Positions 3,448 through 46,606 of a DNA stretch of 64,000 nucleotides are shown here, piece after piece. The notes beneath the pieces were generated by a model. The model was not told where the DNA came from and did no database searches. It worked only from the letters and a program-made list of their open reading frames with translations. This DNA is from a phage: NCBI GenBank assembly GCA_036436775.1, contig GCA_036436775.1_3676.1. One strand, written 5' to 3'. Position numbers and translations under genes: made by a program. Each line of letters begins with the position of its first letter. Position 1 is the stretch's first letter.

Positions 3448-3726
3448 ATGAGCTGTGAAAAATCTTTTTTCTTTATTATTTACGGTAAAGATAACTGCCC
3501 ACATTGTGTAAGAGCAAAAGAATTTGCAGTCAGTAAAGGTCTGCCTTTTGTATATAAGACACTTGGAGAGGGATACACAAAAGAAGAGCTTATTGAGAAG
3601 TGTAGTCCAATCGTCCCAAGAACGTTACCGCAGATCTTCTTAGAAAGCGATCTTGATAGTGTCCATGTAGGTGGTGCCGACGATTTCATCTCTTTTGTTA
3701 AGAATGATTTTGGAGAGAAAAAGTGA
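3448..3726 (+). CDS. Glutaredoxin-like redoxin (T4 NrdC-like)
   Basis: 92-aa ORF with CPHC redox motif and C-terminal LPQIF...VGG.DD pattern typical of glutaredoxins. Confidence 0.75.
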   Translation: MSCEKSFFFIIYGKDNCPHCVRAKEFAVSKGLPFVYKTLGEGYTKEELIEKCSPIVPRTLPQIFLESDLDSVHVGGADDFISFVKNDFGEKK

Positions 3727-5846
3727 AAGTTGTAAAACGGGACGGTAGAGAAGAGGTCTATAACGGAATTAAGGTGATCAAGGCGGCAGAGTCCGCCTTA
3801 CTTGAGTCTGGGCATACTGAAGAAGAAGCTTACCGGATCGCCTGCGCGGTTAATGAAGTTGTTGCTAACAATCTACCAACCGACCAGTGCACGATCTCTG
3901 TAAAAAATATCCATATCCTTGTTGAAGACGCTCTTATGGATATGGGTTTAAAATGTGCAGCCAGAGAATACATCCAGTATAGGCAGACAAGAGATAATAA
4001 CAGAGAGGCAGGTGGAAAACTGCTTGCAGATATTAGTGGCTTCCTGGATCGCACTTGTGATGAATTTACAAAAGAAAACGCAAATAAGCCTACCAATCAT
4101 GTACACACTCATCGTGACCTGCTTGCAGGCATCCTTAGCAAACACCTTGCATCGACACAGATCCTGCCAGACCGTGTCTCCGAAGAGCACAATAAAGGCT
4201 TCATCCATGTGCATGACCTTGACTATTTGATCAGTCCGTTAACAAACTGTTGTTTAGTAAATTATCCAGATATGTTGGAAAACGGATTCAACATTGGTAA
4301 CGCCCATGTCAGTAAGCCGAAGTCAATAGGGGTTGCAACAACAATCCTTAGCCAAATCTCTAGTGCGGTAGCTAGTGCTCAATATGGTGGTCAGACTATG
4401 AGCCATATTGATCATTATCTGGCACAGTATGCTGAAGCAACCTATGAGAAGAACCTTAAATTTTGCCAGGAACATTGGTTGCCAGATGCTGAGACTGTTG
4501 CAATGCAAATGACAGATAAAGACGTGTTTGACAGCATGCAGACGTTGCTTTATCAAATCAATACGTTAACTTCTGTCAACGGGCAAACTCCATTCATCAC
4601 ATTAAGTTTAGGACTGGATACCTCGGTCTTTGGTAGAATGATTACCAAAAACTACTTGAAAGTCCACAAAATGGGTCTTGGTGAAGAACGTATTACACCT
4701 GTGTTCCCTAAAGTGCTGTTCTTCCTAGAAGAGGGTGTCAACATGAACCCTGGAGATCCTAACTATGATTTGAAACGATTAGCTCTGGAATGCTCTGCAG
4801 AGCGGATTTATCCTGACTTTGTTTCTGTTCCACTAAATCGTAAAGTGACAGGCTCGACAGATGGTAAAGTAACGAGCATGGGTTGCCGGAGTTTTCTTAG
4901 CAAATACAATGACTTGGAAACAGGTGAGGAGAAATACCTTGGCAGATTTAACTTAGGCGTTGTTAGCCTTAACCTGCCAATGATTGCGGCAAAAGCTAAG
5001 ACGGAAGGTGTTGATTTCTTTGCCGTTCTTGACGAGTATCTGGATTTGGCATATGAAGCTCACCTTGTAAGAGTTAACCGTCTAAAAGGAACAAAGGCAG
5101 GGCAGAACCCTATCATGTGGTGTGAAGGCGCTCTTGCTCGCCTGGATCCTGAAGAGAGTATTGATAAACTCTTCTATGACGGGTACGCTTCCATCAGTAT
5201 TGGGTATATTGGTGTGTATGAAACCTGTCAGATTTTGGGCAGAGAGGGTGACAAGGCTTTGGCTCTTGGAATACTTCAGCACATGAGAGATGCTTGTGAG
5301 CGATACAAGAAGGAAAGTAGACTAGCGTTTAGCTTGTACGGCACCCCTTCTGAGAGTCTATGCTATAAAGCTGCAACCTGTCTGGATCGTGAATATCCTG
5401 AAGTGTTGAAGCATGAGCATGAATATCTCACCAACAGTTTCCATCAGCCAGTATGGATAAATAGCTCTCCTTTTGATAAGTGGGAATATGAGGAAGGTTT
5501 TGCTATAATCTCCTCTGGTGGCAACATCGGATACGTAGAGACACCAAATCTGAAAAACAACTTAGATGCTTTAGAGGCTCTTGTTGACTTCGGGTATAAA
5601 CACATTATGTATTTTGGTATTAACCAGCCTGTGGATAAATGTCTTAAGTGCGGATTCTCTGGCGAGTTTAGCGCAACAGCTAAAGGATTTGTATGCCCAG
5701 AGTGTGGAAACCATGAAGAGGGAACGATCAGTGTAATCAGACGTGTATCCGGGTACCTGTCTAGTCCAAACTCTCGTCCTTACAATAAAGGTAAGCAAGC
5801 GGAAGTTATAGAACGGGTTAAGCACTACGGAAGTTGTGGTTGCTGA
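3723..5846 (+). CDS. nrdD: Anaerobic ribonucleoside-triphosphate reductase NrdD (class III)
   Basis: 707-aa ORF; N-terminal ATP cone, Zn-ribbon CxxC...CxxC, C-terminal glycyl-radical motif RRVSGYL; GTG start with GGAGAG RBS. Confidence 0.9.
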   Translation: MKVVKRDGREEVYNGIKVIKAAESALLESGHTEEEAYRIACAVNEVVANNLPTDQCTISVKNIHILVEDALMDMGLKCAAREYIQYRQTRDNNREAGGKLLADISGFLDRTCDEFTKENANKPTNHVHTHRDLLAGILSKHLASTQILPDRVSEEHNKGFIHVHDLDYLISPLTNCCLVNYPDMLENGFNIGNAHVSKPKSIGVATTILSQISSAVASAQYGGQTMSHIDHYLAQYAEATYEKNLKFCQEHWLPDAETVAMQMTDKDVFDSMQTLLYQINTLTSVNGQTPFITLSLGLDTSVFGRMITKNYLKVHKMGLGEERITPVFPKVLFFLEEGVNMNPGDPNYDLKRLALECSAERIYPDFVSVPLNRKVTGSTDGKVTSMGCRSFLSKYNDLETGEEKYLGRFNLGVVSLNLPMIAAKAKTEGVDFFAVLDEYLDLAYEAHLVRVNRLKGTKAGQNPIMWCEGALARLDPEESIDKLFYDGYASISIGYIGVYETCQILGREGDKALALGILQHMRDACERYKKESRLAFSLYGTPSESLCYKAATCLDREYPEVLKHEHEYLTNSFHQPVWINSSPFDKWEYEEGFAIISSGGNIGYVETPNLKNNLDALEALVDFGYKHIMYFGINQPVDKCLKCGFSGEFSATAKGFVCPECGNHEEGTISVIRRVSGYLSSPNSRPYNKGKQAEVIERVKHYGSCGC

Positions 5847-6497: not shown

Positions 6498-6527
6498 TTG
6501 ACAAAGTTTTGTTTAGATAGGTATAAT
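6498..6527 (+). promoter_or_regulatory. Sigma70-like promoter TTGACA-N18-TATAAT
   Basis: Consensus hexamers read directly, upstream of a small ORF with a GAGGAGG RBS. Confidence 0.6.
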
Positions 6528-6672: not shown

Positions 6673-7019
6673 CACAAGAACGTATCGATTTGGCTAATAA
6701 GTTTGTAGATCTCATTTTGCCACGGTTAGTTACTCAACATGCAGACGCTATTTCTACTAATCTTGATGGCTTACGTCTAATGCTGAATCGCACAGATGAC
6801 CCTCGTATTCGGGCTGATTTAGAAGCCTCTGCCAACAAACTGGAAAAGTTCTTGCAAGTAGACACGCAAGAAGCCTTACACAAAATTATGGTGGAAGGTT
6901 TCTCTAAAGAATTTACCATTAAAGAGCTTAAGGAGCTGATCCACCAAGAAGAGATGAATATCCGAGTTCAGGCTGTTGCAAGCAGCATGGAAGCGGCTAT
7001 TGAAAAACTGTTGCAGTAA
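6669..7019 (+). CDS. Hypothetical protein
   Basis: 116-aa ORF, GTG start overlapping upstream stop. Confidence 0.5.
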   Translation: MTQERIDLANKFVDLILPRLVTQHADAISTNLDGLRLMLNRTDDPRIRADLEASANKLEKFLQVDTQEALHKIMVEGFSKEFTIKELKELIHQEEMNIRVQAVASSMEAAIEKLLQ

Positions 7020-7057
7020 ACGTACTTGGCACATCTCAATCTGAAAGGAGTCCCAAC

Positions 7058-7846
7058 ATGGGTCGAGCTAAAGAAACAAAACGCATGCGTGATGAAGCTA
7101 GAGAGGCTCGCAAATCTGATCGCCTGCGTAAGGCTGCTGAGAAATTTGCTGACGAACGAGAGCACACCGCTCCAGCTCTCCGACCAATGAATAAGAAGCA
7201 GCAAAAGTATCTTGATTATCTAGGGTCACGTAAGATTATTATTGTAAACGGTGTGTTTGGATCCGGTAAGACATTCATGGCATCTGCATATGCAGGTGAT
7301 CTTCTGCGTAAGAACGAGATTGATAAGATCATTGTTGCACGTCCTTACGTTCAGACAGGAAAGACTTCAGGATTTAAACCCGGGAATGCAATGCAGAAAC
7401 TGTGGCCTTATCTTCGAAGCATGATGGACACTATTTGTCGTCGTGTTGGCAAAGGTGCTTTTGCCGCAATGCTGGGAGATGGTCAGAACAGCCGTATCGA
7501 GATTTGTGAAGTTGAAAGCATTCGTGGTCGTAGTTTCGATGAGCGATGCTTTGTCCTGATTGACGAGGCACAGCAAACTAACCCTGAAGAAATGTTGTCA
7601 ATTATCACAAGGATCTCTGATCAGGCCACCCTTGTAATCATGGGCGATAATAGCCAACGTGACATCCCTGGTAAATCTGGACTTGCATGGGTGACGGATT
7701 TCTTTACTCGTCATCCAGATCCTGAGGTTGGAATGATCAGCTTTGATAGTCCAGACGATGTCGTTCGTTCCGGATTGGGTCGTCAGATTGCACTCAATCT
7801 TATTGAGGATCGTGCAAATCATATTTGGACTCCTGTTTCCGAGTAA
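7058..7846 (+). CDS. phoH: PhoH-like ATPase
   Basis: 262-aa ORF; Walker A GVFGSGKTF and PhoH-family motifs (ARPYVQTGK...GF.PG). Confidence 0.85.
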   Translation: MGRAKETKRMRDEAREARKSDRLRKAAEKFADEREHTAPALRPMNKKQQKYLDYLGSRKIIIVNGVFGSGKTFMASAYAGDLLRKNEIDKIIVARPYVQTGKTSGFKPGNAMQKLWPYLRSMMDTICRRVGKGAFAAMLGDGQNSRIEICEVESIRGRSFDERCFVLIDEAQQTNPEEMLSIITRISDQATLVIMGDNSQRDIPGKSGLAWVTDFFTRHPDPEVGMISFDSPDDVVRSGLGRQIALNLIEDRANHIWTPVSE

Positions 7847-7890
7847 TGCAGAAGGGTGGTTATTCCACCCTTAAATATCTAAAACAGTTG

Positions 7891-7920
7891 TTGACAAACA
7901 GGTAAAGCTTTAGATATTAT
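7891..7920 (+). promoter_or_regulatory. Sigma70-like promoter (TTGACA, AT-rich -10)
   Basis: TTGACA at 7891 followed 17 nt later by ATATTAT; preceded by hairpin AAGGGTGG/CCACCCTT. Confidence 0.5.
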
Positions 7921-7947
7921 TATTATTGGACAAGAGAAGGAGATAGT

Positions 7948-8259
7948 ATGGCTACAATACAAGAGAGACTGAATAAAATATACTGCCTGTTTGTCTATAA
8001 CGGCGAGACAATTTTGGCAAATAAAGGATACAAGAATGTGTGGATCAAGGATAGTGGTGGTAATATAATCAACTTAGCGTTGCTACGTGAGCGCCGACAC
8101 AGATTCTTTATCGAGTCTCGGATTATTGAAAGCAGCACCTGCTACAGAACAGGTGATAAAGTAATTGTTGACAATGATACGTGGTATGTGGTAGACTGGC
8201 AATCACTGAGCTGTGATGCTTCTGACAATCGTAAGTACTCTATAGTGATTGCTAAATAA
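7948..8259 (+). CDS. Hypothetical protein
   Basis: 103-aa ORF downstream of promoter with GAGAAGGAG RBS. Confidence 0.6.
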   Translation: MATIQERLNKIYCLFVYNGETILANKGYKNVWIKDSGGNIINLALLRERRHRFFIESRIIESSTCYRTGDKVIVDNDTWYVVDWQSLSCDASDNRKYSIVIAK

Positions 8260-8319
8260 AGGTAAATGTGAATCAGGTTTAAATAAATAGCTTTCAACTT
8301 CCAATATTAAGGATTTCTC

Positions 8320-9369
8320 ATGAATTTAACACCTCGCAGCACCATGGTACACGGCATGAAAGAAAAACAGAACGGTTTCGAACCTATGAGTAATAAAATG
8401 TTCGGTATGCCGGGTGGTATTATGGAAACATACAGCTACCCAACACCAGTTGTTGACCACGTTCTTTATATTGACGATTTGGAAGACTTACAAGATCATA
8501 TGTCTCGTCTGCAGACGATCCGTATGGCTCAGCCGGAAGAAAGCATTCGGGTGATCATCAATAGCCCTGGAGGTTGCGTGCACATTGCAATGGCTTATCT
8601 GCAGGCATTCCGCGAGTCTCAGGCAAGCGTTGTTGCACATGCTGAAGGGATGTGCTGCTCTGCTGGAACAATCTTATGGCTTGGTTGCAAAGAACGTACT
8701 GTGGCTCCGGACACAGAATTTATGTTCCACTACTATCAAGGTGGCACTTATGGTAACGGTGTGAACATGAATACTCAGGTCAGCTACTGGAAAAAACGTT
8801 TTGAACGCCTGATCGAAAAATACTACGGTGGGGTGCTGACAGAAGATGAGATCGCATCCATCACAGCTGGCGGTGAAGTGTGGTTAGATGGAGAAGAGCT
8901 GGCATCTAGAACTGGTGCTATCATTCTGGACGATGAAAACATTCAGCGCATTCAGAATGGACAGAAACCGAAAAAGCTTTTGGCAAAAAGTGATGAAGAA
9001 GGTGTGCTAGGCGAAGCAGGCCTGCCAGAGATTCACCAATGCACATCTCTGGACGAGCTGGTTCATGCTGTTGAGTCTGCAAAAGCAAATGGTATGAAAG
9101 ACGATGTTCACACTGTGTTCCTGAATCTGCAGATGGAAAGTGGTGAGACCGTCCGGATCGCCCTGGATGAAATTACTTCAGAAGATCTGCAGCGATTCTC
9201 TGTCGTCGAACTTCAGGATATTCTGTCTCAATTGAAGACTACTCTGAACGGCGGTGAAGAGGTTAAGGTGAAAGACAAGACCCGCAAGCGTCTGATGGAC
9301 AATATCATTAAAACAGCAAAAGAGCTCAATGAAAAAATCCTGGGTGCAGGAATTGTCGAAGAAGCTTAA
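8320..9369 (+). CDS. ClpP-family serine peptidase-like protein with ~150-aa C-terminal extension
   Basis: 349-aa ORF; INSPGG motif, catalytic-Ser context MCCSAGT, His context MFHYY, matching ClpP/S14 fold order. Confidence 0.7.
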   Translation: MNLTPRSTMVHGMKEKQNGFEPMSNKMFGMPGGIMETYSYPTPVVDHVLYIDDLEDLQDHMSRLQTIRMAQPEESIRVIINSPGGCVHIAMAYLQAFRESQASVVAHAEGMCCSAGTILWLGCKERTVAPDTEFMFHYYQGGTYGNGVNMNTQVSYWKKRFERLIEKYYGGVLTEDEIASITAGGEVWLDGEELASRTGAIILDDENIQRIQNGQKPKKLLAKSDEEGVLGEAGLPEIHQCTSLDELVHAVESAKANGMKDDVHTVFLNLQMESGETVRIALDEITSEDLQRFSVVELQDILSQLKTTLNGGEEVKVKDKTRKRLMDNIIKTAKELNEKILGAGIVEEA

Positions 9370-9381
9370 ACATTAATTCTA

Positions 9382-9406
9382 AAGCCCTCTTCGGAGGGCT
9401 TTTATG
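9382..9406 (+). terminator. Rho-independent terminator
   Basis: AGCCCTC-TTCG-GAGGGCT hairpin followed by TTTTAT. Confidence 0.7.
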
Positions 9407-9420
9407 ATCTGGAGATTTGC

Positions 9421-9954
9421 ATGACTTGTGCTAGAAAACCTGATGAACAACGTAACGCATACGATGAGTATGTGACACCGGAGTGGTGTGCAGAAGGACT
9501 GTATGACCTTATTCCGTTCCCAGAGGACTGGACCTACTTAGAGCCTTGCAGGAATAGTGCCTCAGGTGTGTTCTACTCCCGTATGCCGTTAGGATCTGCA
9601 TGGGGAGAAATCCAAGAAGGTGTTGACTATCTGAATACAGAATACAACCATGTTGACTGTATTATCACCAACCCACCATACAGTCTGGCCCGTGAGTTCG
9701 TAGACAAGGCGTTGAAAGATGCTGACGTAGTTATTATGCTTTTACGTCTTAATTTTCTGGAAAGCAAAGCCAGATTTGAATGGTGGCTTGATAATGCACC
9801 CACTACTGTGATCACAATATCTAAGCGTCCATCATTTCAATCAAATGGCAGAACTGACGGGCAAGCATATGCATATTTTGTGTGGGATAAGAAAAACCGT
9901 TTAGACTTGCCGCCGTTTATGTGGTTGGCACCTCCAGAGGTAGACCTGAAATGA
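9421..9954 (+). CDS. Small phage-type DNA N6-adenine methyltransferase
   Basis: 177-aa ORF with catalytic motif ITNPPYS (NPPY). Confidence 0.65.
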   Translation: MTCARKPDEQRNAYDEYVTPEWCAEGLYDLIPFPEDWTYLEPCRNSASGVFYSRMPLGSAWGEIQEGVDYLNTEYNHVDCIITNPPYSLAREFVDKALKDADVVIMLLRLNFLESKARFEWWLDNAPTTVITISKRPSFQSNGRTDGQAYAYFVWDKKNRLDLPPFMWLAPPEVDLK

Positions 9955-10235
9955 AAATGAGTGCTAAGGACAAATTACACCAGTTAGCGCTAAAACGTCC
10001 TGTAACGCTTCCTGACGAGCTTAACTCCATTTATGATGCGATTGTAGGGGAGATACAAAATAAAGCGTTAGCAGGCTTTCTGGGATGCGGATTTTCGATA
10101 AATCTACCCTCGCATCTCTCAGATTACTTCCCGCATATTGTTGGGGATTTGAGGGCAGGAGGTCTGCAGGTAGATGTTGTTGGCATCTCTCCAGAGAAAA
10201 ATAATACGGTTGCCTACTTGACAGTAACCTGGTAG
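9951..10235 (+). CDS. Hypothetical protein
   Basis: ORF; start moved to ATG 9951 overlapping upstream stop (TGAAATG), GAGGT RBS. Confidence 0.55.
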   Translation: MKMSAKDKLHQLALKRPVTLPDELNSIYDAIVGEIQNKALAGFLGCGFSINLPSHLSDYFPHIVGDLRAGGLQVDVVGISPEKNNTVAYLTVTW

Positions 10236-10269
10236 TTGTGTATTGTTGTTCTCAACAAGGGGGTCATTT

Positions 10270-10509
10270 ATGTACAAGTCATTTTCAATTTACTCAAGGC
10301 AGGCGAAACACTACACAGAGATCCTGATTACTCAGAAAAAATCTGTAGAAGGTGAGTGGGAATATCACCATAAAATGTTACGTCCAGATTGGGTTTTTGA
10401 TAGACTTATTGCCATGATTCCTCTTGGGGAAGTATACCCTCTGACAGGCGGGAGGGATGCTTGGGATTTAATTGATTACATAGATTCATTTAAGGAGCCC
10501 AGTGTATGA
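10270..10509 (+). CDS. Hypothetical protein
   Basis: ORF; start moved to ATG 10270 with AAGGGGG RBS. Confidence 0.55.
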   Translation: MYKSFSIYSRQAKHYTEILITQKKSVEGEWEYHHKMLRPDWVFDRLIAMIPLGEVYPLTGGRDAWDLIDYIDSFKEPSV

Positions 10510-10904
10510 AGATTGAGATCACTAAAGAAGGTAAGAAAGTGTCTGGAGACTATGCAACAGTAATTCGAGATTTAATGTTTGAAACCACCAAGTTCGGCAC
10601 ATCTAAAGTTGGTCAAACTGTTAGTGTGCAAGGCAATATCACCACAGGGGAGAAGATAATCATTGTAATCAAGGGGCAGGATCCTGTGGAAGGAACAGTG
10701 GGCCGAGGAGGATACCTGTGCATTTCTGAAGAGCCACGTATGCTGGTGGCTGACCACACTACAGGTGGGAAACGTGTGTGCGAGGCGGATGAGGTAATGA
10801 TTATTAAACCTGTTGATCCAGATGATCCAGCAACTTGGGTGGTAGGAAATGAAATCTTCTCCTTAGAAGAGTTATCCTTCCCAGCCCCACGCTCTGTTCA
10901 GTAA
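10506..10904 (+). CDS. Hypothetical protein
   Basis: 132-aa ORF, ATGA overlap with upstream gene. Confidence 0.6.
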   Translation: MKIEITKEGKKVSGDYATVIRDLMFETTKFGTSKVGQTVSVQGNITTGEKIIIVIKGQDPVEGTVGRGGYLCISEEPRMLVADHTTGGKRVCEADEVMIIKPVDPDDPATWVVGNEIFSLEELSFPAPRSVQ

Positions 10905-10943
10905 TAATTTATCTTGCCAGGGACGGTAGAAGCAGGAGGTAGC

Positions 10944-11177
10944 ATGAAAGTTAAATTTCTTACAGATTTAGGGTACCCTTCCTTGGTTGACTGCGTTGGT
11001 AAAATTGTGGAAGCAAAACGGCTATCTGCAAACGAGAATGTTGTCCTGGTTAAGGGAAAGGATTTACTAGCTGCAGGTGCAGAGTCTGGCAGGATCTCTC
11101 CTGACTATACATATTACCTATCTTTAAGTAATCTGCCAGAACGAGGCGGCAAAGGCCTTGAAGTTGTGGAGGAGTGA
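10944..11177 (+). CDS. Hypothetical small acidic protein (paralog family, ...LLAAGA...VEVVEE)
   Basis: ORF; start at ATG 10944 with GGAGGT RBS; shares motif with ORFs at 14607, 14821, 16697, 16965. Confidence 0.6.
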   Translation: MKVKFLTDLGYPSLVDCVGKIVEAKRLSANENVVLVKGKDLLAAGAESGRISPDYTYYLSLSNLPERGGKGLEVVEE

Positions 11178-21693: not shown

Positions 21694-21869
21694 CACACAA
21701 TTAGCTGCCCGGCTAAAGTGCTGGAAGCACCTATAACACATCTTTCAACTAAATTTCCCACCACCACAATCACTTACCTCCCACACATGACTGTTTGCTT
21801 GTTTAGTGAGCAGTCATGCCTTGACATTCTTGCCTATCCTGATAAAATTAAGTTCTTCTCTTTTCTTTT

Positions 21870-21895
21870 ACCGAGTAATTCGGGTTTTCTGTTCT
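21870..21895 (+). terminator. Candidate terminator ending the + strand block
   Basis: CCGAG-TAA-TTCGG hairpin followed by GTTTTCTGTTCTCTT. Confidence 0.4.
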
Positions 21896-23189
21896 CTTCG
21901 GTTTGAAGGGGTATGGAGATACACCTGAGTGAACAGGGTGAACAACCGAACCATTGGCTATGGCATTAGCATGGCGAAGCGGACGGGTGACGAAAGAGGG
22001 GCCGGAGGACACCAGTCACTGCCATATGATATATGGGTGATAACCTGAAGAGTCTGAATAAGTGTTTAAGTACCAGTCAGAGGAAAAGGTGAATGGTAGC
22101 CGAAGGGGGAGGGGGGGTTACCTGCTTCTGTAAACATGCATCTGAAATACTACTTTAGATAACCTGAACCTGCCTTTCTGACAAATATTCCCTATTAAAC
22201 TTGAATTATTTATAGAAAATACCACAACACCACTTAAGTCTTTGATTTTACACACAAATCCTACAGATATTCACCTTCCATATTTAACATACTTGTAACA
22301 TATCTATACCTAACCTGTCCGATCAACTCCCCCACCCACATCCTCCATATTTTCCCTGTCTGTACCACCCCTGCCCCGCCGGGAGTCCCGTCATATCTGG
22401 CTTTCCAGCAAATATCACACCCACAAATATCATTGCCTGAAGAGGGTTTCATCCCATAATACATGCCTTACCTGAAGAGCGCTTCATATACCCAGTAAAT
22501 TTTTTAATTGACCCCCCTCCCAGCCGCCGGAGGGGTTGGCTTTTCCCACACAGACCTGAAGAGTCAGCCAGAAATATCTGAAGAGGTCCAGTTATGCCAC
22601 GATTTTGTGCTTGTCCTACAGGAGTGCTTCCCTGTCAGGAGCCGGTAGCGACTGGAGTGCTGCCAGGCGGACGAAATGGGAATCATTCTCATTCTTATAA
22701 CAATTCTCAAATATCGAGGCAGTGAGGCAAATTAATAGGTGAGGCCGTTCACACAGTGGCACAACATTTGCAACCTATCTTTTATGGGTGAATGAGAATA
22801 CCTATCATTGTGAGAATAGTTATCATTACGGGCAATTTAACATAATACCCATTATGCGCACCACTGGCGATACATACAGGGATTGATAACATGAGTTACT
22901 GTTTACACACATAACAATTATATTTCTTACTATTTGTGTGGGATATAGTTAGCAGCCGATAGATTAGATATTGACCTGCAGGCTTCCAACCGTCCAGACG
23001 TCTAAACGCCCACACAACAAGGATTATACATACAACACTGAATGTAAACAGGGCCGCAAAAATGCTACCATACAAGCTTGTAAATTTTTCATGCAGCACT
23101 TGACAAAGAGGAGAAAAACTTGTCTGACACAATATGACTTAATTGCCACAACATGACACTTTTGCACACCTGATTGTTTGCATGTCTAA

Positions 23190-23554
23190 TAGTTTACATA
23201 GATAACTGTTCACATACTTATCATTTACATGATTGACTGTTTACACAAAGATGATAAGCCATGCCATTCGTTTGCATGACAATAATTAACTGGTTTGCAA
23301 TTAACAAGTTAATAATCTTTCACTGGCTATGCCAGGTGACCTTTGGTCACACCTTCGGGTGTTTCTATGACATAATATAAAAGCAGGGCAACTATTAGCA
23401 GATATATAGTTGCCTTGCTTGTTATGTCATGATTAACTAAATACAAGGCAACTATGATCTGGTTAATAGTTTGCAGACAAACTATCACGGGGGTGATGGT
23501 TACTGCTTTTATATTATGTCGCGACTCCGTCGCGCCATGCCATTCGTTTGCATA
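23190..23554. repeat. Iteron/palindrome cluster (candidate origin or regulatory region)
   Basis: TGTTTACA-type iterons 23193-23250; 20-bp direct repeat GCCATGCCATTCGTTTGCAT at 23258 and 23535; 18-bp perfect inverted repeat at 23369-23386 / 23504-23521; GGCAACTAT palindromes between. Confidence 0.6.
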
Positions 23555-24172
23555 GTTGCCTTATTGTTACATATAAAATAATTGTATTGTTAATTATTTC
23601 TTATCTTTCTCTTAGTCATCTAATGATTCCAGTCAGTATAGTAATGTACAGTAAACATTAGACGACTAAAGATTTATATGCTTATAATAACTTACAGTGA
23701 CAATTTCGGACTGTTTACGAAAAATGTTGACACCTGAGCTGATTTATGTTATGCAGTTTACACGAATAATTATTTTATGCAGGTATTGACTATTCCGTTA
23801 TTCTATGGTCGGAATAAATACTTAGCAGACTATAGAATGGTGACGCTACGTGAATTCTGGAATTTAGTGGCTATAGTTATACCCGATTTTTCACGTAGAA
23901 CACGCTTTTGTGGTTATGTAAGTGTATGACTTATAAAGATTTTTAGTTGTTGACAAGACACTGAAGATATGCATCAGGTTAAATTTTGTGCAATAGCGGC
24001 ATTACGTGCAATTTTGGAAGGAAAAACGTGTAAAAATGGCCCTGCTACCACACAATGAAAGATTATGCAATAGCTATTTTACATGTATATTTGTACAGTG
24101 TGTGGGATTGATGGCTAGTCAATTATTCCACTTGCAGGCTGGGCCGTTTGTGGTAGGAGAAATACAGACAAA

Positions 24173-24207
24173 AAGAAAGGGGCCTTTTAAAGCCCCTGAT
24201 AGTTTAG
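24173..24207 (-). terminator. Rho-independent terminator ending the - strand small-gene island
   Basis: On - strand AGGGGC-TTTAAAA-GGCCCCT followed by TTCTTTTTGTCTG. Confidence 0.65.
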
Positions 24208-43906: not shown

Positions 43907-44182
43907 CAATAGTTCAGGTAGGTCGTTAAGCTACCCCGCACCATTACGTGCATAGCCATACGTTTTCACGTAGGATCGGACCATCTCATATTCCTATGAT
44001 AAGCAACCACAGGAATCCTCCCATTTCGACCGCACTTGCTGGTCTACTTCCTTTCGGAATGGCCTCTGAGCGTTCGCTCTTTTGAGCGCTTCGTTGCGGA
44101 TTACCTTGCCATAAGGTTTAGGCTTCCCGCAGTTAAAGAGGTTATTCGACATAGATTACTCTATGAAGCCACAATGTTATTT
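43907..44182 (-). ncRNA. Candidate 276-nt group I intron splitting the DNA polymerase at motif C
   Basis: Upstream exon ends in U (codon CAT=His); intervening sequence ends in G before GAT GAG; joining gives YHDEYQLQV; internal GACCA/UGGUC pairing; contains stop codons. Confidence 0.5.
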
Positions 44183-46606
44183 ATGGTAATAAATAATACG
44201 GCGAACACCTTCATCGTACCACCCACGCTTCACCATTTGGTGGTGCATGAGTATCCCAACTAAGTCACACAGCGATGCACCACCATTCTGTTGGTATGCA
44301 TTAAGTAAAGAGTGTTTAGATCGGGTCCAGATAGCATGACCATCAAAAGAGTAGATAAACTTCTTACCAGTTGCTTCCCAGAATTTCTCCAGATCCTCTT
44401 TGCGCCCCTTAAGACCGGGGTTGGCATCCCAAAGCGCATCGATTACCCTTTGTCCCAACTCTGGAGAGATGTCCAGCATATCTGCAACTTTATCTTTTTG
44501 TGCCCCGTACATAACCCCATACGTGATAGGTTTACCGTCGTTACGGGACACCTCTCTACCTGCTACTTTCGTATATGCCTCAGCATTGTTTTGGTGTGCA
44601 TCTCCGTTACTTACAACATCGTAATACAGGCCGTTGTCGAACTCAAAGGCACCCCAAGCCCCGATAAGCTGCTCTAAGTTGGACCCGTCAATACCGATCT
44701 CAAAGTATCCTGGAGGAACACCCCACAAGCTACGCATCTCTTTACCCATAACCACTTTAGGAGATGGTTTAGGCATGTTTGCACAAATACTGTGTTTCTG
44801 TCTGGAAGTGTTTGTCAGCCCAGAACTTTTAGCAGGAAGCTTATGGTCAATCTTCAAACGTGGGTGATTAAGAAGACCAGTATCAACCTTATCCTCCTTG
44901 ATTGGATCAAGGACCGATCTGCGGTTTCGCAATGATAACCACAAGACGATATCTTTAGCCATCTCTCCGTTCAATTTTTCAAGATTCGGACACAGGTGTC
45001 CAAACGTATCTTTCAGTTGCGGAGAAGTAATAAGTGCTCTGGCTTTTCTACGTATTTTCCCGAATACTTCCTTTTTAATCCTTTCAGAGTTAGGAAAGCT
45101 TCGGAACTTGTGCACAGTTGTCTGGAACTTGGCATCAGTTTTGTTCCAGAAGTTGATAATCAGGTCACAATACTCTGACTCTAAAAGCTCGTCCATATAT
45201 GCATATACTCGTGCATCAACATCCGCATCAGGTAGAGCTTTCTTCTTGCTATCTTTAGTTACATCTTTAGTTCTCCACATTGTCGGTAGCCAGCCAGCAC
45301 TGATCAGATACCGCTTAATGTCGTCCTGATTGCTGATTTTCATAGGTATCTTGCAGTCCGGCATTCGCTTCTGCTGTAGATCACTTATTGCCTGATCCAT
45401 CAGCTCTTTAGGCAAAGGGTGGGGTGTGGAAGTGCCCTTAATATAGCCTCTCAAGAAATCAGCCATCTTATCGGGGTCTTTGCAGCCCATCTCTTCACAC
45501 CATTTTATCCCTATCTTGCTGACATCCCCTGTAGAGGTAAATGCTCGCTTAGGCGGGGCTTTGAACTCTAAAGCGCTCATGTCTACAGGATAGCCAAGCT
45601 TATCTTTTAACCATTTCCAACCATTATTAGAGATTGTCCCGTCTTGGTTAAACGGCTTTTCAGGGAACTTGGGCCGCTGAGACATTGACAGCTCTTTTAA
45701 AGGCAGCTGTGGTTCAACACGATCAGCGATTTCTTTCATCCACGCATCGCAACGGTCACGTAAAGCAATAGCTCCATCTATGTCGAAGTATACACCCTGA
45801 CGGGCCTGCAGCTCCATCAGGAAGTGCTGCAGCATGCCTCGACGTAGTGCGTTCTTCCAGGTGATCTTCTTGAACCCTTTCGGCTTCTCTTTGGCTGGAT
45901 CGTACATAAAGTTCTGCATGTCAGATTTGCCGTAGAATACACCTTTTGATTCCGCTACCAGCTCTTTCCAGAGCAGCTCCTGGATGATAACGTCCTCGAA
46001 TACACGATCCACATACTTCCACAACGGAAGATCGCGCCAGTCATCAATTTGAACTTTCTGGTTACCAAGGGCGTAGCCCCATGCCATAAGGCCGTGAGGA
46101 CCAACGGGCTGCATTTTCTTAGTAACCGGGTTGAATACAGAATCCGGACAACCTTTTGGTAAAGGGCGATCAGGCCACAAGATTCGGCTCATCGCCAACG
46201 TATCAAACAGATTAACCTGGTGGTCGTTGATAGTCCCCATACACTTAGGGTCACGGAACATATCAAAATGAATACCGGATAATCTTTCCATCAGCATAAA
46301 GTCATAACTGTAGCAGTTATGGCAGTTCAAAGCTGTTGGTGACCAGTCAGAATTTCCTGTAAGCCAACCTTCCAACTCCGAAAAATCTGCTATGCGAACT
46401 TCAAAATCTTTATAAAGAGTTTTCTTTGCCAGAATAAAGTTCTTAGCCTTCTCTATATCCTCTTCAGAGTAGTGTGTGCGGTCATTTAGAGGAAGGAACA
46501 GCATAAAACGGTTCTTATTCAGCTCTTTAAACAAGCCGCAGTGATAATAAAGATCTAGGTCTTCTAGTAAACCAGAGGCCTCAAGGTCGAAAGACCACAT
46601 ACTCAT
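44183..46606 (-). CDS. Family-A DNA polymerase, N-terminal segment (3'-5' exo domain, palm/fingers, motif B)
   Basis: FDLEASGL exo motif; Pol-A motif B KPITYGVMYGAQ; ORF runs into stop 8 codons past the point where motif C is expected; AAGGAGAACTGTAT RBS. Confidence 0.85.

Follow-up and report, generated by a model that had tools for sequence, protein, structure and literature searches.

Positions 8320-9369 of the 64,000-nucleotide phage stretch analysed here (contig GCA_036436775.1_3676.1 of assembly GCA_036436775.1; hereafter the window) hold a + strand open reading frame (ORF) with an ATG start that encodes a ClpP-fold peptidase of 349 amino acids plus stop. With moderate confidence, we favour the view that this protein is an early, ATPase-independent ClpP-fold serine peptidase of phage lineage which carries a C-terminal targeting module and is not a capsid-maturation protease. 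In the features tested the peptidase differs from both characterised kinds of relative, bacterial ClpP and the ClpP-like prohead protease. The gene itself is already catalogued in public annotation and in the PHROGs, and the window holds nothing unexpected for a Vequintavirus. A megablast search with positions 7000-11000 matched 123 phage records at 90-99% identity, nearly all of them Vequintavirus (rV5-like) myophages of Escherichia coli, and the window is collinear, in reverse-complement orientation, with Escherichia phage AlexBoehm (MZ501048). The peptidase ORF is the ortholog of rV5 ORF122/gp122, the 'ClpP ATP-dependent protease subunit', and of BASEL bas56_0173, a 'ClpP-like protease', and the ClpP-like annotation is found in more than 100 public Vequintavirus genomes. 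Identity to rV5 gp122 is 95-99.7%, and identity to the copy in vB_EcoM-Pr121LW is 99.7% (tblastn).

The ClpP-like core had been recognised from the DNA alone in an earlier note on this stretch, and the profile hidden Markov model searches proposed there bear it out. Residues 59-168 are recognised by Pfam CLP_protease (47.8 bits, where the cutoff is 20.2; E 2e-12). The profile phrog_5410 'ATP-dependent protease' covers the full length, its positions 4-322 (of 323) aligning with residues 24-345 (E 6.3e-155). The top-scoring PDB entries by sequence are without exception ClpPs, and the core of the AlphaFold model is confident, with a predicted local distance difference test score (pLDDT) above 90. 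No match to Peptidase_S49 was obtained at E values up to 0.1, and TIGR00706 SppA_dom reached 14.2 bits against a cutoff of 155; the S49 or lambda gpC type has a Ser-Lys dyad, and the peptidase keeps His137, as in S14. Segment borders were drawn from an alignment of 21 full-architecture family members, extending down to 40% identity, together with the AlphaFold model. The N-terminal tail (residues 1-44; 8320-8451, + strand, as are all segments of the gene) is predicted to be disordered (pLDDT <50) and carries the conserved motifs F28-G29-x-P31 (FG-x-PG) and Y40-P41 in a sequence unrelated to that of the ClpP axial loop. It is followed by the ClpP-fold core (residues 45-215; 8452-8964), which contains the CLP_protease match. 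Within the core, the nucleophile Ser114 (codon 8659-8661) aligns with ClpP Ser97 and His137 (codon 8728-8730) with ClpP His122, and both are invariant across the 21 family members, as are the oxyanion-hole pair Gly84-Gly85 and the substrate-strand motif H-x-x-Q-G-G, while Glu186 (codon 8875-8877) stands at the position of ClpP Asp171. Ser114, His137 and Gly84-Gly85 are also invariant in the homologs of ICP1, PAK_P4, nt-1, CR8 and T5-like phages, and the Asp171-equivalent position is Asp or Glu in most of the distant non-structural phage homologs. These correspondences were taken from HMMER alignments to ClpP structures and from local motif alignment; a MAFFT alignment with E. coli ClpP misplaced the C-terminal segment of ClpP, and the mapping of R170, D171, L189 and R192 from it was discarded. 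Because Ser114, His137, Gly84-Gly85 and H-x-x-Q-G-G are invariant and Glu186 falls at the Asp171 position, the protein is very probably an active serine peptidase. In a comparison of the window with AlexBoehm and rV5 the ratio of non-synonymous to synonymous divergence (dN/dS) is low in every segment (0.04-0.09 overall), with ranges of 0.00-0.05 in the N-terminal tail, 0.03-0.07 in the core and 0.08-0.09 in the C-terminal extension, and all segments are under purifying selection.

The long C-terminal extension of about 150 residues described in the earlier note is real. The core ends near residue 200-215, leaving some 135-150 residues that are conserved across the family and that, since dN/dS is low in every segment, are a functional part of the protein. 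They comprise a variable linker (residues 216-261; 8965-9102), modelled with low confidence and carrying a Vequintavirus-specific inserted helix (residues 244-256), and a C-terminal module of about 80 residues (residues 262-349; 9103-9366), which the alignment and the AlphaFold model place at residues 262-343. Modelled alone, the module (pLDDT 82.8, predicted template modelling score 0.71) consists of a beta-hairpin followed by a short helix and then a long helical hairpin, and its invariant residues are F293, E297 and R322. Other protein contexts for the module were sought and rejected: in BFVD, Foldseek retrieved nothing beyond one member of this family, all five matches of an exhaustive profile search through 1.84 billion representatives were family members too, and Pfam SAP and HeH gave only sub-threshold hints, so that the module appears to be without relatives elsewhere. 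The complete architecture was found only in homologs from rV5-like large myoviruses, namely Vequintavirus, 4MG, SalP219, Erwinia Hena1, Klebsiella phages and metagenomic contigs. The linker shows a synonymous divergence from AlexBoehm and rV5 of about 0.81 against 0.18-0.27 in its flanks, a three- to fourfold excess, while AlexBoehm and rV5 are identical to each other over this stretch. The pattern suggests a short patch, limited to the linker, that was acquired by recombination from a more distant lineage.

The signals around the gene point to early expression. A sigma-70-type promoter (TTGACA-18 nt-TATTAT, 11/12; 7891-7920, + strand) was found by scanning and corresponds to rV5 P121 (rV5 Table S4), annotated in DQ832317, and an intrinsic terminator (GCCCTC-TTCG-GAGGGC followed by TTTTAT; 9385-9406, + strand) read from the sequence corresponds to rV5 t122 (rV5 Table S4). 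Between them lie an ORF of 103 residues (7948-8259, + strand; rV5 gp121, PHROG 5456, phrog_5456 at 1.8e-38) and the peptidase gene, which has a Shine-Dalgarno sequence, AAGGA (8309-8313, + strand), 6 nt upstream of its ATG. From the near-consensus promoter and the terminator, the two genes would probably form a discrete unit, with the 103-residue ORF first, that is read early by unmodified host RNA polymerase. The putative late-promoter motifs of rV5 all lie upstream of genes 30-64 (Table S4; PMC3606486). A late promoter for the peptidase was also considered and rejected, the best likeness to the rV5 late motif TggTAaAAtA being an unconvincing 6/10 at 8260-8269.

The gene lies downstream of the ribonucleotide reductase (RNR) genes, of glutaredoxin and of PhoH, a placement shared by 4MG, Hena1, a metagenomic relative, CR8 and ICP1. 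The premise of the earlier note that in phages the ClpP-like genes are usually neighbours of capsid genes is only half true. Homologs are carried by 945 phage records, with hosts that include Vibrio, Pseudomonas and Rheinheimera, and the non-structural homologs inspected (ICP1, KVP40-like nt-1, PAK_P4, a T5-like Klebsiella phage and CR8) all lie among replication or early genes.

No structural genes lie within the 64-kb window, and the question of whether a separate prohead protease exists, raised in the earlier note, was therefore answered in near-identical relatives. The head module of AlexBoehm runs in the order terminase, portal (Portal_Mu), a 139-residue protein, scaffold, decoration protein and major capsid protein (Phage_cap_E). 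The 139-residue protein between portal and scaffold is of the XkdF type, matching Pfam Peptidase_S78_2 (PF14550; E 8.7e-18, 65 bits against a cutoff of 24) and phrog_1530/3017. Virions of W70 (Vequintavirinae) contain the phrog_1530 ortholog, a 'capsid maturation protease', those of CB7 contain the head-module 'prohead core protein protease' CB7_5, and no ClpP-like protein is listed in either virion proteome (PMC11370258, PMC7344957). The molecular weight of gp122 (38,541) is likewise missing from the 19-protein virion table of rV5 (PMC3606486, Table S5), so that proteomics, to which the earlier note had looked for signs of a virion maturation protease, lists no ClpP-like protein in any of the three phages. 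The XkdF-type protein resembles the peptidase in being an annotated serine protease encoded in the same phage genomes, but its family, Peptidase_S78_2, is unrelated to CLP_protease, and it is encoded in the head module and detected in virions whereas the peptidase gene lies in the RNR/PhoH block. It is thus the maturation protease for which the ClpP-like gene could be mistaken. The non-structural role proposed in the earlier note is supported by this separate head protease, by the early-type promoter with the gene's own terminator, by the position in the RNR/PhoH block and by the absence from the virion lists.

Against this it could be argued that the peptidase is a head-assembly protein after all, acting on proheads as a second maturation protease or as a fusion of protease and scaffold, whose gene merely lies apart from the head module. 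Its best curated match is indeed a family of head maturation proteases, NCBIfam NF045542 (Clp_rel_HeadMat; 60.3 bits, E 2e-16), and, besides PHROG 1827 (1.7e-40), it matches PHROGs 1684 (5.5e-23), 94, 2976 and 133, the last four all labelled 'head maturation protease'. ClpP-like prohead proteases such as Azula gp4 (428 residues) also have long C-terminal extensions, and the major capsid protein is lambda gpE-like (Phage_cap_E), lambda being a phage that uses a ClpP-fold protease. However, the NF045542 score is half of the cutoff of 120 bits, and the head module already has its portal, XkdF-type protease, scaffold, decoration and capsid genes, with that protease present in virions. The peptidase gene, with its early-type promoter and own terminator, lies in the nucleotide-metabolism block in every relative examined, and core-only homologs occur in KVP40-like and T5-like phages, lineages that have their own prohead proteases, gp21 and pb11. 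The ClpP-related head maturation proteases share with the peptidase the plan of a core and long C-terminal extension and, in Azula gp4, the helix-B deletion and polar pocket substitutions described below; they differ in sitting between portal and capsid genes, and the C-terminal module of the peptidase is unrelated to their scaffold domains. We regard a role in head assembly as unlikely.

The ATPases ClpA and ClpX insert IGL/IGF loops into a hydrophobic pocket of ClpP, to which one subunit contributes L48, F49, A52 and F82 and the next subunit L23, Y60, Y62, I90, M92, F112, L114 and L189, with the C-terminal strand of ClpP forming part of it (bioRxiv 10.1101/820209). When the family profile was aligned to E. 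coli ClpP, gap-free over most of the region, 10 of these 12 residues could be mapped, L23 and L189 not being alignable. Five have been replaced by polar or charged residues that are invariant in the phage family (Y60 by R77, F82 by E99, I90 by H107, M92 by E109 and F112 by T127), F49 and A52 fall within a 5-residue deletion of helix B, L48 and L114 correspond to the small residues A70 and A/S129, and Y62 (I/V79) is the sole mapped position that is still hydrophobic. The pocket is likewise lost in the homologs of ICP1, PAK_P4, nt-1, CR8 and T5-like phages, and the same loss is seen in gp4 of Gordonia phage Azula, a genuine ClpP-like prohead protease encoded between portal and scaffold genes. 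The hijacking of host Clp ATPases suggested in the earlier note is not supported by this pattern, and canonical docking of ClpX or ClpA on the peptidase is unlikely as judged from the alignment.

A phage ClpP-like ring that docks host ClpX or ClpA through IGF/IGL pockets, and so redirects ATP-dependent unfolding to phage-chosen substrates, would accord with the ClpP fold, the intact Ser-His site and the ClpP-like handle region (MFHYYQGGTYGNG against MIHQPLGGYQGQA), and with the database label 'ATP-dependent Clp protease subunit', a homology-transfer label only. We nevertheless judge it decidedly unlikely: beyond the pocket replacements themselves, an ATPase-independent prohead protease shows the same pocket pattern, the N-terminal axial-loop sequence is unrelated to that of ClpP, and the ClpP models all score far below cutoff (TIGR00493 33.2 against 308.6 bits, PRK00277 38.3 against 249 and PRK12553 39.2 against 228). 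With bacterial ClpP (S14; E. coli ClpP, PDB 1TYF) the peptidase has in common the fold, the Ser and His motifs, the oxyanion Gly-Gly and the handle and substrate strand; it differs in the polar patch that stands for the pocket, in a helix B shorter by 5 residues, in the change of Asp171 to Glu or Gln, in its axial-loop sequence and in the 135-150-residue C-terminal extension that ClpP lacks. Because the pocket loss is shared with Azula gp4 and the NF045542 score exceeds the ClpP equivalog score, these comparisons assign the gene to a phage branch of the ClpP fold that does without an ATPase, rather than to captured host clpP. The proteins of PHROG 1827 (ICP1 ORF211, KVP40/nt-1 ORF271, PAK_P4 gp168 and the T5-like Klebsiella protein) have the Ser, the His, an acidic residue and the pocket loss as in the peptidase, and differ in that their C-terminal extension is absent or of another kind, the module of 80 residues being confined to rV5-like phages; ICP1 ORF211, of 326 residues, has its own unrelated extension.

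Just as doubtful as docking is a ClpP 'half-barrel' whose docking face for the ATPase is gone. The phage protein would then either form a chimeric barrel on a host ClpP heptamer or assemble into an ATP-independent ClpP on whose former ATPase face its seven tethered C-terminal modules make a cap; if this were true, the phage would gain early control of regulated proteolysis, for example of the turnover of antitoxins or defence proteins. Very unlikely in our estimation is a phage heptamer that stacks through the handle region on a host ClpP heptamer and poisons or retargets host ClpXP/ClpAP, as might serve to blunt defences dependent on antitoxin proteolysis. The handle region and active-site strand are the most ClpP-like parts of the protein, and loss of the ATPase pocket is compatible with a non-docking ring; in mycobacteria ClpP1 stacks with ClpP2 and only one ring binds the ATPase. 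However, the position before the catalytic Asp, which in ClpP is the ring-ring 'sensor' Arg170, aligns in HMMER with an invariant Gly185, and the homologs occur in phages of very different hosts and have low identity to any host ClpP. That the protein is a pseudo-protease, its catalysis irrelevant and its role that of a structural decoy or binding protein, might be read from the varying third triad residue (Glu, Gln or Asp) and from the fact that the peptidase has no assigned function, but is highly improbable given that neither the family nor its distant phage relatives show any variation at Ser114, His137, the two oxyanion glycines or the motif of the substrate strand and that dN/dS of the core is 0.03-0.07.

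The favoured reading of an early, self-contained phage peptidase suggests the following course of events. Host RNA polymerase would transcribe the gene early from the near-consensus sigma-70 promoter, together with the 103-residue ORF. The core, as aligned, keeps the nucleophile, general base and oxyanion hole of ClpP, with Glu at the third triad position, and the former ClpX/ClpA-docking face carries the conserved polar patch R77/E99/H107/E109/T127. Since the catalytic residues are kept and the docking pocket is replaced by this patch, the peptidase is expected to act as a self-contained, ATP-independent ring. The conserved helix 203-217 and the tethered C-terminal module should lie on the former ATPase-docking face, because the C-terminal strand of ClpP contributes to the pocket, and the module, on its flexible linker of about 50 residues, would most likely recruit or gate substrates there, in the manner of the capsid-targeting extensions of ClpP-like prohead proteases; this analogy is the least secure step of the scheme. 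The likely origin is a ClpP-like protease of phages that was turned to a new, early task in the cytoplasm. Candidate tasks are to process or remove particular proteins of host or phage, or to clear peptides and unfolded proteins.

Several points weigh against this scheme. The oligomeric state, activity, timing and substrates of the peptidase are all inferred, and searches of the literature on phage ClpP, on Vequintavirus and Clp and on ICP1 and Clp brought up no functional study of it or of a close homolog. The triad is not uniformly conserved, the Asp171-equivalent being Gln in the 4MG/Hena1 branch. The loss of the pocket was read from a sequence alignment, and a non-canonical contact with a host or phage ATPase is possible. 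The role of the C-terminal module is drawn from analogy, the fold searches having given no informative match. Absence from virions is weak evidence, as a prohead protease will often have left the capsid and only 19 proteins make up the list for rV5.

The earlier note had placed the gene between phoH and a Dam-type methyltransferase, among early genes. A PhoH-like ATPase (7058-7846, + strand; Pfam PhoH 3.6e-47) is indeed the upstream neighbour and a gene resembling N6-adenine methyltransferases (9421-9954, + strand; PHROG 799 at 8e-67, NPPY motif) the downstream one, but the 103-residue ORF intervenes on the PhoH side, and the Dam and EcoRI_methylase Pfam matches of the methyltransferase-like product fall below cutoff. 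PhoH and the ClpP-like gene stay linked in 4MG and Hena1, in Certrevirus CR8 and in Vibrio phage ICP1, and the order PhoH, one to three small genes, ClpP-like gene is seen in CR8 (L013 1829-4876) and even in ICP1 (L010, NC_015157, 2214-4912), which belongs to a different genus. A functional partner chosen from the gene neighbourhood was considered and rejected, because the block is collinear in all relatives, which reflects shared ancestry and not specific coupling; a 'two-component protease' of PhoH and ClpP was set aside, as PhoH is not known to be an unfoldase-type ATPase. The 103-residue ORF gave no match in Pfam, NCBIfam or PADLOC, and weak homologs of it precede the peptidase gene in 4MG and Hena1 (L005_5201_5509, 30% identity, E 1e-6); its product is a candidate partner or regulator of the peptidase. 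A PADLOC search for defence or anti-defence annotation gave no match. Directly after the PhoH stop lies a 7-bp hairpin (AGGGTGG-TTATT-CCACCCT, 7847-7880) that lacks a T-run and might act upstream of P121 as a weak terminator or as a site of RNA processing, and a perfect sigma-70 consensus (TTGACA, 18 nt, TATAAT; 12/12), corresponding to rV5 P118, stands at 6498-6527, upstream of the small ORFs before PhoH.

Elsewhere, the window carries the block of NrdAB, glutaredoxin, NrdDG and PhoH genes, then a run of small ORFs, and replication and rII genes. Some 2.5 kb at 21,700-24,200, where the + and - strand gene blocks converge, hold no ORF longer than 78 residues, no transfer RNA and no Rfam match, and correspond to the 'non-coding' box of the rV5 paper. 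Within this region a dense repeat cluster at 23,200-23,600 includes a perfect 20-nt direct repeat (GCCATGCCATTCGTTTGCAT, at 23258 and 23534), a perfect 18-nt inverted repeat (23369-23386 and 23503-23520) and four copies, in both orientations, of the motif CAAGGCAACTAT; the region could be an origin or a regulatory region. In AlexBoehm the genes for NrdD (L001 16678-18845) and DNA polymerase (L003 17352-20971), whose counterparts in the window lie at 3723-5846 and 44177-46606, are annotated as joined (split) genes; the AlexBoehm polymerase gene holds an inserted homing endonuclease, and NrdD in the window is one uninterrupted ORF of 707 residues. Intron and homing-endonuclease content thus seems to vary between near-identical phages.

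ClpP-like genes outside head modules are found in hundreds of large lytic phages, among them rV5-like, ICP1, KVP40-like, Pakpunavirus and T5-like phages, and this clade has members in phages relevant to therapy as well as in ICP1, a model system. Our analysis suggests that the database label 'ATP-dependent Clp protease subunit' is mechanistically wrong for the clade that lacks the docking pocket. If these proteins are peptidases that act early and on their own, with targeting modules particular to each lineage, they would constitute a class of tools, as yet unexplored, with which phages remodel the proteome of the host or their own.

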